From: Candidatus Aenigmatarchaeota archaeon
Lineage (GTDB): Archaea > Aenigmatarchaeota > Aenigmatarchaeia > Aenigmatarchaeales > JACQIB01
NCBI GenBank assembly: GCA_043799675.1
Contig: JAZDNN010000032.1
Coordinates: 1 to 14,713, forward strand
Direction of reading: 5' to 3'
Length of the DNA: 14,713 bases
Under the pieces are notes generated by a model. That model was not told the DNA's origin, made no database searches, and worked only from the letters and a program-made list of their open reading frames with translations. Positions 2,237 to 13,960 of the stretch are shown in pieces (position 1 is the first letter of the stretch; each line of letters begins with the position of its first letter). The position numbers were made by a program, and so were the translations under genes.

Positions 2237-2989
2237 ATGCACGACAAGCACGACCTGATTGAAATCGTACGGAGGCTGGCCGCGGCAGGCAGGACCGAGC
2301 CGGAGATAATCGGCCAGATGCGCGCAGCGGGTTTCCGCCCGGCGGAAATCGATGAAGCTCTGAGAGCCGTGATAAAGACCAGGGTGGAGGAGCACAGGTT
2401 TCATCCGCGTCCGCAGGCCCGCCCGCCCGAGCATCACGCCCAGCCCGTCCATCATCCGGCAAAACCCGCGGAGACCGAAAACTTCCGGTCAAATCCGCCG
2501 CCCGAGCTTTCCGAACACCGTGAAAGGCAGAAATCAACCATGCCAGAGATGACTTCCATTCCGGAGTCCCTCAGGCCGATTGATATTCCAGGCTTCGCCC
2601 CGAAAGTTCATGAACAGAAGGAGGATGAATTGCCCGAGCACCCGACCGAGCCCATCACCCCCATAACGACCGGACACGAAAGCACCGGCAGGGGCTACCG
2701 GCCCACGAGGGAGCTCGAGATGGAGGAGCTCGTGGAGGAGATAGTGGAAGAGAACCTGAACAAGTTGCAGGACAGGCTAGGAACCATCGACCACCGCGAC
2801 AACCAGCTGGAAGCCCAGCTGGCAGAAACCAGGCAGCTGCTGGAGCAGGCGCATAACATCGACGTCAAGCTGCAGAAGTCCCTTGAAAATCACAACGATG
2901 AGATAAAGGAGTTCATGACCAAGTTCGAGTCACGAATAGCGGCATTGGAGCACGCCTTCAAGGCCCTCAGCGGCCACATGAAGAAATAA
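2237..2989 (+). CDS. Hypothetical protein: small helical N-domain, Pro/His/Glu-rich linker, C-terminal coiled coil (250 aa)
   Basis: AGGTG RBS-like motif upstream; N-terminus GRTEPEIIGQMRAAGFRPAEIDEAL; acidic MEELVEEIVEE motif followed by heptads. Confidence 0.85.
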   Translation: MHDKHDLIEIVRRLAAAGRTEPEIIGQMRAAGFRPAEIDEALRAVIKTRVEEHRFHPRPQARPPEHHAQPVHHPAKPAETENFRSNPPPELSEHRERQKSTMPEMTSIPESLRPIDIPGFAPKVHEQKEDELPEHPTEPITPITTGHESTGRGYRPTRELEMEELVEEIVEENLNKLQDRLGTIDHRDNQLEAQLAETRQLLEQAHNIDVKLQKSLENHNDEIKEFMTKFESRIAALEHAFKALSGHMKK

Positions 2990-3179
2990 TATCACTCCGT
3001 CTTCAAAATCACGGCGAGGAAAAATAATATTTCTCCGTTCCAAACGATGTGACGAGCAATTCTGATATTTCCCCGGCAACAATGATGCGACGGGCAAAAC
3101 ATGATATCGCTCCGTTCAAGAAAATGTGACGAGGAAAATAATGATATGGCCCCGTCCACAAGTATATGACGAGCAAAAT
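2987..3179. repeat. Degenerate five-unit tandem array, period 38-40 bp, consensus TRATAT-N2-CYCCG-N13-GRCGRGSAA
   Basis: Units start at 2987, 3025, 3063, 3102 and 3142; internal spacing is identical in all five; the array fills the gap between two convergent stop codons. Confidence 0.85.
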
Positions 3180-3184
3180 CGCTT

Positions 3185-3715
3185 CTATTTCCCTTTCTTG
3201 TCGCCCGTCTCAATGATGAGCCAGATGACCGCAAGTACTATGCCTATCAAAAAGATCGTGCCGCTCGAATTGATATTGACATTTGAAGGTAGCGTTATGC
3301 CAAGAACATCAAGCCCGCCGGAGCCCACGAACACCAGGCCTGCAAGCACGACGAATCCGACCGCAAACATTGCCGGGTACTTTGAAAAATAACTATGCGA
3401 TTCGCCGCCTTCCGTTGTCGCCAGGAAATGCTTTATTCCGAAAGCCTCGAACAGGACCACCAGCACAAGTATCCCGACCAGAACCAGCACCAGATTCGAG
3501 GAAAGGCTTGTAATGAATGAAAGCAGTGCCGTCGGGGCCGACATTATCACAAGGAAAGCCACAACAAGGGCAAGTATCGCCTGCACGCTCTTACCTTTCG
3601 GCACGTTCGCCTGATTGAGTATGCCGTAAACCACCGAAAAGGTGAGAAGCCAAAGGAGCATGTCCGGCAGCCCCAGTCTTGTCAGGACCCCGCCAACTGT
3701 CGCAAAATCGGCCAT
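3185..3715 (-). CDS. Multi-pass membrane protein, paralog 4 of tandem family (176 aa)
   Basis: ATG 3715 overlaps the upstream stop (TAATG); shares LLWLLxFxxVYGILNQ..PKxK and VFVGxGGL motifs with its neighbours. Confidence 0.85.
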   Translation of the reverse strand: MADFATVGGVLTRLGLPDMLLWLLTFSVVYGILNQANVPKGKSVQAILALVVAFLVIMSAPTALLSFITSLSSNLVLVLVGILVLVVLFEAFGIKHFLATTEGGESHSYFSKYPAMFAVGFVVLAGLVFVGSGGLDVLGITLPSNVNINSSGTIFLIGIVLAVIWLIIETGDKKGK

Positions 3716-4269
3716 TACTTTTCGTCTCCCTTTTCCATGACCAGCCAGATGACGGCCAACGCAATCATCGCCATCACCAGCGCACCCATCGGGTCTATTC
3801 CTGACGGCAAAGCGAGTCCGGTTATGCTCAATCCGCCCGCGCCTGCGAAAAGCACTATGGCAACGATTATCAAGACAGCTGCCCACACTTTCGGATGACC
3901 AGTGAACATGTTCTCTTGAACGTATTCCGCAGGTGCATCATACTCTTTTCCATCCGGCCCCTTGATTTTTTTGGTCTTGCCGACCTTCAGGTGCTTCACC
4001 CCGGCAATCTCAAGGAACGTGAAAACGACCAGTATTCCCAGAAGCACGACCAGCAGGCCCGTGGAAAGGTTCGTCAAGGTGGTGATGATCGATGCGGGTG
4101 CGGACAGCAACACGAAGAACGCCACCACGATTGCGATTATGCCCCTGACTGGCTTGGACTTCGGCATGTTGGTCTGGTTCAATATCCCGTAAACGAGCGC
4201 GAAGCTGAGCAACCAGAGCAGGATGTCCCCGAAACCGAGCCGTTCCAGCGGCAACAGCAAATCGGCCAT
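3715..4269 (-). CDS. Multi-pass membrane protein, paralog 3 (184 aa)
   Basis: About 5 hydrophobic segments; LLWLLSFALVYGILNQTNMPKSK, HPKVW and AGAGGL motifs; 1-nt gap to the upstream gene. Confidence 0.87.
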   Translation of the reverse strand: MADLLLPLERLGFGDILLWLLSFALVYGILNQTNMPKSKPVRGIIAIVVAFFVLLSAPASIITTLTNLSTGLLVVLLGILVVFTFLEIAGVKHLKVGKTKKIKGPDGKEYDAPAEYVQENMFTGHPKVWAAVLIIVAIVLFAGAGGLSITGLALPSGIDPMGALVMAMIALAVIWLVMEKGDEK

Positions 4270-4270
4270 G

Positions 4271-4783
4271 TTACTTCTTCTCCCCGCCCTTGGTCTCGTG
4301 CATCATCACGTAGACCGCGGCAATCATCACGCAGATGAACAGAAGGAACGCCATCACCGTGGTGCTTATCTCGATCTGCGGCAGGCCTATCACGTTCAGC
4401 CCGCCCGCCCCGACGAACACCGCCACCAGGATTATCAGGATGGCGGCAGCGAAGAACTTCGGATGAGCCTTGAACACGGTCCCTTCGCCCACCTTCACGC
4501 CGGTTATTTCCAGGAAAATGACCGCCACTATCAGCCCGAACGCGATGAGCACCGTGGCCACGATGAGGTTCTGCAAAAACGCCACAGCCGGCGAAGCCGC
4601 CGCGGCAAGCAGGACCAGGAACGCGGCCGTAAGGGCTATCACGCCCCTTGCGGACACGCTCTTCGGTATGCCTGCATGATGCAGCAGTCCCCAGACGATG
4701 CTGAGCGTGAGTGCCCAGAGCAAAATCAGCGTTGCACCTGCGTCACGGAGCGCAATTATGAACAAATCGATTGGTGTTGCCAT
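4271..4783 (-). CDS. Multi-pass membrane protein, paralog 2 (170 aa)
   Basis: LLWALTLSIVWGLLHHAGIPKS, FLEITGVK, HPKFF and VGAGGL motifs align with paralogs 3 and 4. Confidence 0.87.
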   Translation of the reverse strand: MATPIDLFIIALRDAGATLILLWALTLSIVWGLLHHAGIPKSVSARGVIALTAAFLVLLAAAASPAVAFLQNLIVATVLIAFGLIVAVIFLEITGVKVGEGTVFKAHPKFFAAAILIILVAVFVGAGGLNVIGLPQIEISTTVMAFLLFICVMIAAVYVMMHETKGGEKK

Positions 4784-5978: not shown

Positions 5979-6812
5979 TCATTCGTCAGCGTCGAAATAC
6001 GGAGGCATGGCGTCATCGGCAGGCGGCCCGCCTCTGAGTCCATCGTACATGGCCTTGTAAAGGCCCGCCTGGGCACTGGTGGCATCATTCCGGAACTGAA
6101 GCATGTTCATCTGCTGTTTCTGATATTCGGTGTTTTCCCGGAGTATCTTCAGTTCACTGTTTTCATCGCTAATTTTCTTGGATATCCTGAACGCATCAGC
6201 CCAATACTTCGCTTTCTCTTTCTTGTCCGTCGCCCTTTCGGAAGCCTCGAGCAGGTTCTCTATCGCTCCCTTATAGTCACCGAGTATCTTCAGTTTCTTT
6301 GCCTTGTTTACGAAAGATTTGTAGCCGGGCTCGTCCTTCGGCCAGTTGCCGGTATTTTCCCATATGTTAATCTGGTTGAGCGCATCGCCGTACTTGCCAT
6401 CTGCAAAACCTTTCTTCATATCAGCGACCTTGTCCTTGTTAGCCATGATGAATTCCTCTGCAGCCGTCCAGGCAACTGGCAACAGATAGAATGCATCCAT
6501 CCAGCACCATTTCGGCGTAAAATCGTACAACCTTTCCGCCGGTCGCCCCGAATAAAACATGTTGTGAACTTCGTCGCCAAAGCCCGGCTTCGGAGCGGAC
6601 CTGTCAAGAAGATACTTATTGTAAAGATCAGTGGCCTGACCGAGCGTTCCCCACATCGGCAGGGCGCGCCACGGCTCTTCCCCTTTTCCCGAATAAAGGT
6701 GGGTTTGCTCATAGGTGGCTGCTTCTTTTCCGGTCATCACAGAATTCTGAATAAGCTTATACAACTCGCCGGCAGGCAGCATAACACGTTGTTCCTGATC
6801 TTCATTTCCCAT
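5979..6812 (-). CDS. Hypothetical protein (277 aa), helical C-terminal half
   Basis: AGGTGA RBS 4 nt before the ATG; TTTATATA box at 6861-6854; protein-like composition. Confidence 0.8.
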   Translation of the reverse strand: MGNEDQEQRVMLPAGELYKLIQNSVMTGKEAATYEQTHLYSGKGEEPWRALPMWGTLGQATDLYNKYLLDRSAPKPGFGDEVHNMFYSGRPAERLYDFTPKWCWMDAFYLLPVAWTAAEEFIMANKDKVADMKKGFADGKYGDALNQINIWENTGNWPKDEPGYKSFVNKAKKLKILGDYKGAIENLLEASERATDKKEKAKYWADAFRISKKISDENSELKILRENTEYQKQQMNMLQFRNDATSAQAGLYKAMYDGLRGGPPADDAMPPYFDADE

Positions 6813-10106: not shown

Positions 10107-10877
10107 ATGCGCTTCGCATTCGACGTCATCGGCAACCGCGAGAAGGCGGTGGCCATAGTGGAGCTTCCGGAGAAATCAGACCCCGCTGCCGTTGCAAGAT
10201 CAATCATGGAACGGCACCCGAACGTCAAAAGTGTCCTGGCAAAAGCGGGTCCGAGGGAAGGTGTCCTCAGGATATACAAGCTCAGGCTTCTGGCAGGCTC
10301 GAAGGACACCGAGGTCATGCACCAGGAATACGGGATGAAGTTCAGGCTTGACCCCCAGACCGTCTACTTCAGCCCCCGCGAAGGGTTTGAAAGACAACAT
10401 ATAGCAAGGATGGTCAAGCCAAAGGAACGTGTGCTGGTCATGTTTGCAGGCTGCGGGCCGTTCGCAATCGCGATAGCAAAAGCACAGCCCACCGCCAGGG
10501 TGGAAGCAATAGAAATCAACCCTGCTGCCGTCAAGTACATGGAACAGAACATCAGGCTGAACGGGGTGGGCCTGAGAGTGAATGCCCATCTGGGGGATGC
10601 GCATGATTCGGCAAAGCTGGGAAAGCTCGATCGGATAATCATGCCCCTGCCCGAGCTTGCCTGGAAATTTTTGCCTGCCGCTTTCGGCGCCTGCAGGAAG
10701 GGCGGTATCATCCATCTCTACGGCATCTCGGGTCAGGAAAAATTCATCGATCTCGTCCACAGGGTGCATGAGGTCGCAAGGCATGAAGGAGTGAAGATGA
10801 GGATAACCGGCGGGGAGAAGGTGCTGCCCTATGCGCCGCACACGTGGAAGGTGCGGCTGGACATAAGAGTATTGTAA
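10107..10877 (+). CDS. trm5: Trm5-family (Met-10+) SAM-dependent tRNA position-37 methyltransferase, short form lacking domain D1
   Basis: FDVIG start; H.EYG..F.LD...VYFSPR...ER, MFAGCGPF, IEINP.A and DRIIMPLP motifs. Confidence 0.82.
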   Translation: MRFAFDVIGNREKAVAIVELPEKSDPAAVARSIMERHPNVKSVLAKAGPREGVLRIYKLRLLAGSKDTEVMHQEYGMKFRLDPQTVYFSPREGFERQHIARMVKPKERVLVMFAGCGPFAIAIAKAQPTARVEAIEINPAAVKYMEQNIRLNGVGLRVNAHLGDAHDSAKLGKLDRIIMPLPELAWKFLPAAFGACRKGGIIHLYGISGQEKFIDLVHRVHEVARHEGVKMRITGGEKVLPYAPHTWKVRLDIRVL

Positions 10878-10882
10878 CAAAT

Positions 10883-10922
10883 TAGTGTCATATGACAACT
10901 TTAAATAGTGTCAGATGACAAC
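10883..10922 (+). promoter_or_regulatory. Two palindromic operators flanking a TATA box
   Basis: TGTCATATGACA (10886-10897) and TGTCAGATGACA (10909-10920), 23 bp apart, with TTTAAATA (10900-10907) between them. Confidence 0.75.
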
Positions 10923-10929
10923 AAATAGT

Positions 10930-11535
10930 ATGCAATTCAGAGACTTCGCCGAGAACCTGCTTGGCTCAAAAGTCAAAATAAAGGTGCTGAGAAAGTTATT
11001 GACCGAAGCGTTCCTTCCCAGCGAACGGGAACTGGCAAAACTCATCGGCGTATCATACACCGCGGTCAGCCGGGCACTAAAGGACTTCCACGAACTCAAC
11101 CTTATATCGCCGCTGAGAATCGGCAATGCCATGACATGGCGACTGAACGAAAAAAGCTATGCCTGCGAATTTCTTTCCAACGTCATCGGAAGCATGCAAA
11201 CATCGCCTTTGGAACACCTGAAAGAAACGCTCCATGAACACTTGAAAGATATGCGGGAGAAGGGCAAAATCAAATTGATCAAGGCCGTAATATTCGGTTC
11301 CGTTGCCGAGGGAAGGGAGATGCCCGACAGCGACATTGACCTGTTCATTTTGGTACAAAGCGAAGAGGAAAGAAATCATCTGTTGAATTCTGCGTTTCCG
11401 GTCGTCGGCTTGATTATACAGGAGATGTACGGCAACAAGCTTTCTCCGCAGATTTTTACCATGAAAGACTACGCTGACCCGAAGAACAAAAAGTTCCTGG
11501 AAAACGTGGAGAAAGGAATCACGGTGCTTTCATGA
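10930..11535 (+). CDS. Winged-HTH plus minimal nucleotidyltransferase (MNT) fusion; putative antitoxin/regulator
   Basis: HTH SERELAKLIGVSYTAVSRAL; FGSVAEGREMPDSDIDL (GS-x10-DxD). ATG 10930 preferred over 10915, which lies inside the operator only 7 nt after the TATA box. Confidence 0.9.
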   Translation: MQFRDFAENLLGSKVKIKVLRKLLTEAFLPSERELAKLIGVSYTAVSRALKDFHELNLISPLRIGNAMTWRLNEKSYACEFLSNVIGSMQTSPLEHLKETLHEHLKDMREKGKIKLIKAVIFGSVAEGREMPDSDIDLFILVQSEEERNHLLNSAFPVVGLIIQEMYGNKLSPQIFTMKDYADPKNKKFLENVEKGITVLS

Positions 11536-11933
11536 TTAAAAACAGGCCGGTCGATCGCTCGGATGCCGTCAATTACCTGAAAAGGGCCGAAGAATGCCTG
11601 CATTCGGCGCGAAGGAGCATGGAAAATGATGAATGGAATGTCTGTGTAATAGACGCCATCCATTGCGGAATAGCCGCCGCAGATGCCATATGCGTAGCCA
11701 AACTGGGCCTCCGCAATGCCAGCGAGAATCACAACGATACGCTACGACTCCTCGCCAGCATCGGGAACGACAATGAGATTTCCGCGGCCGTCCGCCATCT
11801 GAGCAGCCTTCTTAGCATCAGGACCGACGCCGAATACGGGAGCAAACTTCAACTGCGCCCTGCAGCCGAGGCCGCACTGATGCACGCCGAACGGCTCCTG
11901 AATTTCAGCCGGAATAAAGTAAAACCGATTTGA
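11532..11933 (+). CDS. HEPN-domain protein, partner of the MNT
   Basis: YLKRAEECLHSA..., AIH..I.AADA, H, and R.DAEY motifs; ATGA overlap with the MNT gene. Confidence 0.88.
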   Translation: MIKNRPVDRSDAVNYLKRAEECLHSARRSMENDEWNVCVIDAIHCGIAAADAICVAKLGLRNASENHNDTLRLLASIGNDNEISAAVRHLSSLLSIRTDAEYGSKLQLRPAAEAALMHAERLLNFSRNKVKPI

Positions 11934-13132: not shown

Positions 13133-13960
13133 TCAGCACACTTTGAGGTCGAACACCAGGTGCTGCTTGCCGGGGCTCATGCTCTTCACATGCTGGATGT
13201 CGAGCACTTTGAGCGTCCTCCCGTAAGCTGATGCGACATCTTTGAGCTCTTCCGTCCTTGCTTCCACCTGGTCCAGCGGAAGGGCCTCGTGATAATGGAT
13301 GGTTGCCCCCTTCTTGGCAATCTTAAGAGCTGACGGGAAAAAAACCAGCGAATCGTCCAGCCAGCCCGAAATCACCCTGTCCGCGGTTCCGGCCAGATCG
13401 TCGGAAAGGTTCCTGCAATCCCCCCTGAGCACCGTGACCTTGTGGGAAAGCCGGTTGAGCTTGAGGTTCTCCTTCAGAAACGCAAGAGCGGTCGGATTGA
13501 CGTCAATGGCCGTTACCTGCTTGGCCTTCTTCGCGACCGGCAGCGTCCAGTAGCCTATCCCGGCAAACATGTCCACTATCTTTTCGTTGGGCTTGATCAT
13601 GCCTGCAAGCCTTCCCCTCTCCCCTTTGTTGCCGCCGGACCACATCACCTTGTTCAGGTCCATCTTGAACACGCACCCGTGCTCCCTGTGTATTGTTTCC
13701 AGTGAGCTTTTTCCTGCAAGCACCTCCATTCTCGGCTTCCTGGTGGTCCCGCTTATGCCCTTTTCGAGTGCCACGGTCCTGAAATGAGGTAGCACCTTGA
13801 GGGCGGCAGCGCCTATTTGCTTCCTGGCTACCATCAATTCAGGCTTCAGCCTCAGAATCATGATTTCCCCGACCCCGTTGTAACCGCGCGGGAGCGCAGC
13901 GAGCTGCTTCTCGCTCAGTTTCTTGCTCATTTCATTTGAAAGTTGTTTGTGGAATGTCAA
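13133..13960 (-). CDS. taw2: Taw2/TYW2-like tRNA(Phe) 4-demethylwyosine aminocarboxypropyltransferase
   Basis: TTG start after GGTGA; HREHGC.FK.D..KVMWS.GN..ER.R, DMFAGIGYWTLP, GDCR, ADRVISG and IHYHE motifs, typical of Taw2 rather than Trm5. Confidence 0.82.
   Translation of the reverse strand: MTFHKQLSNEMSKKLSEKQLAALPRGYNGVGEIMILRLKPELMVARKQIGAAALKVLPHFRTVALEKGISGTTRKPRMEVLAGKSSLETIHREHGCVFKMDLNKVMWSGGNKGERGRLAGMIKPNEKIVDMFAGIGYWTLPVAKKAKQVTAIDVNPTALAFLKENLKLNRLSHKVTVLRGDCRNLSDDLAGTADRVISGWLDDSLVFFPSALKIAKKGATIHYHEALPLDQVEARTEELKDVASAYGRTLKVLDIQHVKSMSPGKQHLVFDLKVC

Follow-up and report, generated by a model that had tools for sequence, protein, structure and literature searches.

Five tandem units between convergent genes of an aenigmatarchaeote belong to a dispersed, probably REP-like family of short repeats

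Results

Five head-to-tail units fill the spacer between two convergent genes

The stretch of DNA analysed here, referred to throughout as the window, is a 14,713-nt contig (JAZDNN010000032.1 of assembly GCA_043799675.1; C17 in our numbering) of a Candidatus Aenigmatarchaeota archaeon. It carries an array of five short units, arranged head to tail on the forward strand with starts at positions 2987, 3025, 3063, 3102 and 3142, that fills the spacer between two convergent genes. The original prediction, made from the bare sequence, listed these five units with periods of 38, 38, 39 and 40 nt, placed them between convergent genes, and called the array non-coding and not frame-preserving. This description stands. 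The units occupy 2987-3024, 3025-3062, 3063-3101, 3102-3141 and 3142-3181 with the sequences as given, the periods are not consistently multiples of three, and no open reading frame (ORF) is called within the array. Genes were taken from a home-made codon-usage caller, which is crude, especially for start codons, together with Pfam. The upstream gene (2237-2989, + strand) encodes a 250-aa coiled-coil protein with a weak DUF7310-like match only; the convergent gene (3185-3886, - strand) is a membrane-protein-like ORF whose start the codon-usage caller places at 3715.

We scored the five units against R1, a covariance model built from 38 distinct units of the genome, and obtained 26.7-46.6 bits (E 1e-5 to 1e-11). 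Unit 1, which reads TAATAT-CA-CTCCG-13 nt-GGCGAG-GAAAAA, scores 26.7 bits, and its TAA is the stop codon of the upstream gene. Unit 2 follows with 39.7 bits. Unit 3 (46 bits) is of the CCCCG/GACGGG subtype and has its nearest copy, 85% identical, on another contig (C12:196). Unit 4 (46.6 bits) is the best counterpart of the lone unit found in a close relative, described below. Unit 5 (41.6 bits) ends 3 nt from the stop codon of the convergent gene (3185-3187), with its CAAAA core about 8 nt away. Tandem Repeats Finder reports the array as 3015-3178, with a period of 38, 4.2 copies, 68% matches and a score of 114. Rfam returned no match at gathering score anywhere in the window, and only noise near the array (E 3.7 and 8.9); no tRNA or tmRNA was found in the window, and a domain search of its ORFs detected neither cas nor Nop domains.

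The unit recurs at about 25 loci of the genome

The genome from which the window derives comprises 748,753 bp in 45 contigs and is 83.4% complete with 0.08% contamination. Within this DPANN genome the unit pattern TGATAT-NN-CYCCG-N12-13-GRCGRG-CAAAA, 38-40 nt long, is present at about 25 loci. A strict regular expression finds 15 matches, of which ten are spread over nine other contigs; with iterated nhmmer the count settles at 42 for E<0.01 (49 at E<1), and R1 gives 40 at E<=1e-3. Taken together, these searches yield 40-49 units on 16-18 contigs. Grouping the 42 units at E<0.01 gives 26 clusters (15 singletons, eight doublets, two triplets and one quintuplet), although the two at the ends of C2 and C8 represent a single locus that was assembled twice. 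The quintuplet is the window array, the largest cluster of the family; the single special array first envisaged is not supported, since the unit is dispersed and adjoins unrelated housekeeping genes. A scan of other genomes' contigs with the degenerate pattern gave at least 114 single chance matches in unrelated bacteria and was uninformative.

The family consensus over 38 units is TGATATTGCTCCGTT..CAAGAAC.TGACGAGCAAAA. Columns C11, C12, G27, C29, G30 and A35 are invariant in 38/38 units and A5, T6, C9, G13, G32 and A34 are conserved in at least 90%, while the middle columns are near random. This bears out the proposal of conserved boxes, at a conserved spacing, around a variable middle; the middle, said to be always 13 nt, does vary in sequence as claimed, but it measures 12-13 nt across the family. 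The boxes come in two subtypes, CTCCG...GACGAG and CCCCG...GACGGG, and by eye doublets tend toward the order GGG-type then GAG-type, which recalls the bacterial interspersed mosaic elements (BIMEs). The window units have their nearest copies elsewhere in the genome at 75-85% identity. Two explanations were considered and rejected. Recent local tandem duplication is contradicted by the identities of neighbours within a cluster, 64.3%, against 64.5% for units of different loci; adenine mutagenesis of the type seen in diversity-generating retroelements, as the source of the variation, was dismissed by eye, A5, A34 and A35 being among the most conserved columns.

A short stem with a bulged C and a variable loop

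The near-complementarity of the two boxes around a bulged C, and the joint change of both sides in unit 3, were noted in the original prediction and are matched genome-wide by covariation of the column pair 10-31 (U-A in 22 of the 38 units, C-G in 10, U-G in five and C-A in one). Pairs 9-32, 10-31, 11-30 and 13-29 are formed in 37-38 of the 38 units. A hand-drawn helix of eight pairs is 75.9% paired, against 28-52% when its 3' side is slid, although its upper pairs form in only 11-19 of 38 units, and RNAalifold retains three basal pairs only. When halves were swapped between units, stability barely altered: on the + strand native units fold at -4.90 kcal/mol and chimeras at -4.67 (p 0.15, or 0.49 within box type), and on the - strand at -6.06 and -5.70 (p 0.075, or 0.035 within box type). 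The stem therefore consists of the conserved boxes, CYC[C]G(T)/(A)CGRG with a bulged C. Most of the 13-mer belongs to the loop, and it is not a helix whose sides evolve together.

A scan of 2987-3181 on both strands for a hairpin followed by a T-run found no terminator-like site. On the - strand a T4 run precedes the stem, whereas in an intrinsic terminator the T-run directly follows it. Kink-turn, C/D-box and bulge-helix-bulge intron structures were dropped by eye: no tandem G-A stands in the required topology, the bulges are of 1 nt and not 3, and the genome has no Nop5.

Units adjoin housekeeping genes with a fixed polarity

Units lie mostly in spacers next to housekeeping genes. The unit-bearing neighbourhoods include the ribosomal and RNA polymerase cluster S13-S4-S11-RpoD-L18e-L13-S9 (C12), Spt4/RpoE'-S24e-S27ae (C42), S12-S7-EF-2 (C8/C2), SecY-adenylate kinase (C43), SBDS-Rrp4-Rrp41-Rrp42-L37ae-Pcc1-prefoldin (C32), aRF1/NYN (C18), ProRS/PMT (C5), Kae1/HAD and the methionyl-tRNA synthetase (MetRS) gene (C15), and PolB-MetAP-histone (C9). 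Units on C3, C23 and C34, like those of the window, stand next to proteins of unassigned type or surface proteins. The aRF1 gene (C18:2135-4849), which is directly followed after its stop codon by a three-unit cluster, contains an intein with LAGLIDADG and HTH_3 domains.

By orientation, 11 of the 26 clusters lie between co-directional genes (eight antisense, three sense), six between convergent genes and one between divergent genes; the remaining eight fall at the edge of a contig or within an ORF extension that is itself doubtful. Antisense and convergent clusters have a stop codon 0-14 nt from their CAAAA end, and the next start is 32-134 nt away. About six times, the window included, a co-oriented gene uses the TGA or TAA of TGATAT as its stop codon or has its stop codon right beside it. 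Five convergent spacers are filled completely by units, with five units on C17, three on C18, two on C32 and one each on C5 and C34. Unit strand coincides with negative GC skew in 15 of 16 contigs; since skew tracks gene strand (r 0.86) and the assembly is fragmented, polarity of replication and of transcription are inseparable here.

A promoter reading, which would make ATATCA a TATA box lying 32-34 nt ahead of the following start, was rejected: at the S11-RpoD junction a canonical TTTATAAA box is located 3' of the units, and at convergent loci there is no gene to promote. For six clusters the contig ends no more than 300 nt away, and breaks in the assembly may be due in part to the repeats or to their conserved neighbours.

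Units were inserted in this lineage

We compared the genome with 40 relatives, six from its family and 34 from its order but none from its genus, with genomes of 0.3-2 Mb. The covariance-model scan foreseen in the original prediction, so productive within the genome, matched 0 of these 40. In a 150-genome sample of the phylum, one other genome gave a single 31-bit R1 match in a coding-looking tandem repeat, which we take as chance.

Three conserved gene junctions are expanded here by 75-150 nt over those of relatives, a gain that the inserted units account for exactly. The S11-RpoD spacer measures 122 nt with two units, against 0-49 nt in ten relatives. The SecY-Adk spacer is 78 nt with two units, against -4 to 43 nt in nine of ten relatives, the tenth value (799 nt) probably being a misplaced match. 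The Spt4-S24e spacer is 155 nt with three units, against 4 and 19 nt in the two relatives where the genes are cleanly adjacent; elsewhere one distance of 1446 nt is probably a misplaced match, one pair lies on different strands, and seven loci lack one of the genes.

One unit lies within a coding region. In the MetRS ORF (C15 4387-6129, + strand), an antisense unit at C15:5919-5957 is translated in frame as residues 511-524, NIARLASGTEKYN, and the alignment shows a gap of 13-19 residues at this position in 9/9 relatives, between the QLG and FSTL..G.LK motifs. A second, weaker unit-like match (C15 6081-6120) falls in the MetRS linker after KIE and before the missing C-terminal domain, with loose homology. 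MetRS is thus the only clear intragenic case, possibly two, among about 42 units. With some 25 dispersed loci, absence from relatives and an in-frame intragenic copy, the iteron or centromere array suggested at first is not supported.

Cluster size differs between near-identical relatives. A metagenome contig whose upstream gene is 96% identical at the amino-acid level (L176) carries one unit (45 bits), which aligns best with window unit 4, and a short remnant, against the five units of the window. Contigs of two sediment metagenomes, about 93% identical over the upstream gene, bridge positions 2990 to 3192 with 60 nt.

Other repeat modules, variable segments and neighbouring genes

A second module, GACTGCCGCAGCAGCAAAAG, occurs beside or inside units, giving mosaic composite repeats. 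This second module (...ATATGACTGCCGCAGCAGCAAAAG) is found directly upstream of units at C12 6006 (5995-6020) and C18 4932, 3' of a unit at C5 4554 (4545-4570), within the loop of otherwise normal units at C41 ~62 (~40-100) and C18 ~2025 (~2000-2060), and also at C42 ~95-135. Degenerate partial units flank many units. An unrelated third family consists of a long perfect palindrome with the core GGGAACCTAGGTTCCC and a recurrent ATTTAGGAGGAAT flank; it occupies 11 loci (for example C11:12157, C14:1753, C29:9331/9415 and C16:52170), none in the window. Ten of its 11 copies are intergenic, and no 11-mers of the genome recur more often than its own.

The variable segments were searched against the genome for targets. 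Their 12-mers have 22 extra matches, against 5.2 for shuffled sequences; the 17 matches outside units are isolated, 14 of them lie in coding regions, those of unrelated genes, and none extends, so that composition effects are likely and no target is convincing.

Elsewhere in the window, a nucleotidyltransferase with a helix-turn-helix (HTH) domain (MNT-like, 206 aa) stands beside a HEPN protein (133 aa) at 10915-11933 (+), in an arrangement resembling a toxin-antitoxin-type pair. A 23-nt tandem repeat of 2.5 copies (10876-10929) overlaps the start of the HTH-nucleotidyltransferase gene. Two TRM5/TYW2-family methyltransferase paralogs lie no more than 3 kb apart, at 10107-10877 (+) and 13133-13960 (-).

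Discussion

Probably an old family of proliferated repeats

Units have been added to the DNA of this lineage at many places. Most occupy what is the sole neutral position in so compact a genome, from a stop codon up to the following promoter or to the stop of the neighbouring gene. We consider the family, of which the window array is the largest cluster, to be probably an old one comparable to the repetitive extragenic palindromic (REP) elements, BIMEs and Rickettsia palindromic elements (RPEs), now mainly decaying or being trimmed. On the best reading of their distribution, units are tolerated at the least harmful sites, namely past stop codons, in convergent spacers and within a single surface loop of MetRS. 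At the 3' ends of genes they have possibly been co-opted.

We can propose a mechanism for this repeat family. A trans-acting enzyme would recognise the core of the unit, comprising ATAT, the 5-6-bp CYC[C]G/GRCGRG stem with its bulged C, and the A-run, probably on single-stranded DNA, and would copy or insert units in one orientation. Head-to-tail clusters would then grow by repeated insertion beside an existing unit and shrink by deletion. The common antisense orientation would place TTTTG just after the stop codon of the upstream gene, and surviving copies may be tolerated or may bring a slight benefit as additional signals for termination or insulation. To this extent the recombination-like site of the original prediction is retained, loosely, in that some enzyme must have copied the units; beyond that it is not.

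Several observations weigh against this interpretation. Firstly, no partner enzyme was found. The genome gave no match to the Y1/RAYT domain of REP-associated tyrosine transposases (PF01797; controls match in 6/14 genomes), nor to the TnpB zinc-ribbon (PF07282), IS110 (PF01548) or GIY-YIG (PF01541), for which control genomes respond, although with the genome 83% complete the absence of a partner is not proven. A single reverse transcriptase gene was detected, on C16. Secondly, there is no sign of recent copying, because divergence is high (mean pairwise identity 64%, best pair 85%) and units sharing a cluster resemble each other (64.3%) no more than units of different loci do (64.5%); and, as the assembled genome holds no recent donors for the four units absent from L176, that difference is more simply put down to deletion in the L176 lineage. 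Thirdly, six invariant columns beside saturated ones look like purifying selection on each copy. The invariant core could be explained by selection for a host function or by search ascertainment, but not by the simple neutral decay of a selfish element. The hairpins are also weak: single units fold at -6.6 (+ strand) and -7.5 kcal/mol (- strand), against -3.9 for shuffles, and folding of the whole array as RNA is unremarkable (z +0.78 on the + strand, -1.5 on the - strand). Finally, all 11 multi-unit clusters are head to tail, and the units of any one contig share a strand. The 16 contigs that contain units, most of them short, add up to 199 kb; no unit occurs on the remaining 29 (550 kb), among which are the four largest (284 kb). 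Random insertion fails to predict this clustering by informational genes and these empty large contigs.

Host functions at gene 3' ends or in duplex DNA

A host role, either at 3' ends or as sites in duplex DNA, would best explain the invariant core. In the first case, which we regard as possible though unlikely, units would be cis-elements at gene 3' ends, acting as terminators, insulators or mRNA 3'-end elements. The upstream transcript, which carries the - strand of the unit, would read stop codon, 0-14 nt, UUUUG, weak hairpin and AAUAUCA, and stacked units between convergent genes would block read-through from both sides. The polarity of the family fits this scheme: at co-directional loci eight clusters are antisense to the abutted gene against three sense, the CAAAA end lies within 14 nt of the stop, and the whole convergent spacer is filled on C17, C18, C32, C5 and C34. 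A T4 run is present in 60% of element-bearing 3' flanks against 29% of others, the - strand folds slightly better, the flanking genes are highly expressed informational genes, and the invariant core columns suggest selection. Nonetheless, only about 25 of some 290 spacers of at least 30 nt contain units; relatives with the same operons have none, with much shorter spacers; and L176 manages with one unit instead of five. T runs of five or more are no commoner than elsewhere (10% vs 12%), no hairpin followed by a T-run was detected in the array, one unit lies inside the MetRS coding region, and the excess of U-G over C-A (10 vs 4 across two pairs) favours the other strand.

Alternatively, and in our estimation quite improbably, the units could be duplex DNA sites for a dimeric protein with a role in chromatin organisation, partition or supercoil management, with CYCCG and GRCGRG as half-sites about two helical turns apart. 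The fixed 12-13-nt spacing, the conservation of the boxes far beyond the needs of pairing, and the occurrence of units on one strand per contig, with negative GC skew in nearly all, would all suit such sites. So would the half-swap experiments in silico, which hardly lower stability and indicate that the middle is not a co-evolving stem. Pairing is retained at 10/31 in 37 of 38 units through pyrimidine-purine covariation with U-G intermediates, a pattern that half-sites would not be expected to show, although subfamily ancestry could mimic it. No partner gene was seen beside any cluster, and the scatter over about 25 loci, one in a coding region, and the absence from relatives are equally hard to accommodate.

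A different route of proliferation is also conceivable. Units might be, instead of DNA transposons, copies of a small A-tailed hairpin RNA resembling short interspersed nuclear elements (SINEs), laid down by target-primed reverse transcription at T-runs after stop codons, or else a new family of single-strand nuclease or recombinase might partner with such repeats in DPANN archaea; we give these candidates very little weight. SINE-like copying would explain the A-rich 3' tail of variable length and the antisense orientation by stop codons, as well as the head-to-tail stacking, the lack of a transposase and the preference for highly transcribed genes.

Hardly credible, finally, is the guide-RNA array of the original prediction, resembling the tandem interspaced guide RNA (TIGR) systems, which would be cut into RNAs of about 38 nt whose variable 13-mers pair with targets: its period of 38-40 nt is close to the 36 nt of TIGR arrays, conserved segments do flank a variable one, and TIGR systems are known from archaea and small-genome symbionts (PMC12045711), but TIGR arrays as described there have dual repeats, two 9-nt spacers and an adjacent Tas gene where here there is a single variable segment, the Nop domain (PF01798) has no match in the genome while 4/4 archaeal control genomes match, 15 loci are singletons, Rfam returned nothing, and the 12-mer matches do not extend and look like composition.

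Significance of the family

What we describe is a clear REP-like family in a DPANN genome of 0.75-0.9 Mb with a median intergenic spacer of 22 nt. To our knowledge, REP-type repeats have been studied almost only in bacteria, and our literature search turned up no account of REP-like families for DPANN or Aenigmatarchaeota. Extreme streamlining, then, does not keep archaeal genomes free of proliferating non-coding repeats, one of which lies here within an essential tRNA synthetase gene. The family is a useful case for the study of repeat movement and co-option, given that no partner enzyme was found, that units follow a head-to-tail, single-strand layout, and that informational genes are preferred. 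It also carries a caution: genome-wide dispersal should be checked before short tandem arrays with a variable middle are called guide-RNA arrays.

Comparison with known systems

Several well-known repeat classes can be set beside the family. CRISPR arrays consist of identical 23-50-nt repeats with unique spacers of similar length and are accompanied by cas genes. In the present array the conserved part is degenerate, the variable part is 12-13 nt and there are no cas domains in the window, in agreement with the original statement that this is not a canonical CRISPR. Miniature inverted-repeat transposable elements have terminal inverted repeats, target-site duplications and a parent insertion sequence. 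In the present genome none of the transposase families searched gave a match, and degenerate units, common in the flanks, obscure any target-site duplication. The BOX elements of Streptococcus pneumoniae, also intergenic, are modular: a variable number of copies of one short module stand head to tail between defined boxA and boxC ends. They differ from the present family in that their sequence and host are unrelated, and no boxA- or boxC-like ends were identified here.

TIGR arrays, in the description that PMC12045711 provides, are built of two alternating repeats with two 9-nt spacers per 36-nt unit, next to a Nop-domain Tas gene. The likeness lies in the similar period (36 against 38-40 nt) and in short conserved segments alternating with variable ones; the differences are the one variable segment per unit, the dispersed singletons, and the lack of a Nop-domain gene and of targets. 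RPEs, as portrayed in PMC10969869, are palindromic repeats inserted in frame into many genes. They share with our family a reduced-genome host, in-frame insertion in essential genes and the lack of a known transposase; they are about 100-150 bp long and mostly intragenic, whereas the units described here are 38-40 nt and mostly intergenic.

A further parallel is with REPs and BIMEs. According to PMC3733652, REPs are palindromes of 20-40 bp. Their families, often species-specific, have 20 to thousands of units, with 20-100 units also given as a family size. Most REPs stand just 3' of ORFs, where neighbouring genes are unidirectional or convergent, and a few are intragenic. A RAYT transposase is associated with the GTAG REPs, whereas the CGTC REPs have none dedicated to them; among dimers the head-to-head arrangement prevails and the head-to-tail one is rare (PMC3733652). 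The 'REPs' that RepRanger tallies for archaea are such in a broad, structure-based sense alone (PMC12306157). Our family departs from REPs in its consensus, TGATATTGCTCCGT...TGACGAGCAAAA, which lacks an unpaired GTAG or CGTC tag and is flanked instead by ATAT and an A-run, CGTC occurring solely within the stem of some units. It also departs in its 5-6-bp stem with a conserved bulged C, 12-15-nt loop and weak hairpins, in its exclusively head-to-tail clusters, in its DPANN host without a detected RAYT, and in its much more diverged copies (64%). The likenesses, judged against PMC3733652, are these: short imperfect palindromes in tens of copies, lineage-specific and extragenic, 3' of ORFs, present as singletons and clusters, forming mosaics with other modules and occasionally intragenic, and resembling the CGTC REPs in that a dedicated transposase, absent there, was not found here. 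By analogy, we regard the array as selfish or semi-domesticated DNA of a well-known sort, carried by a host that has received little study.

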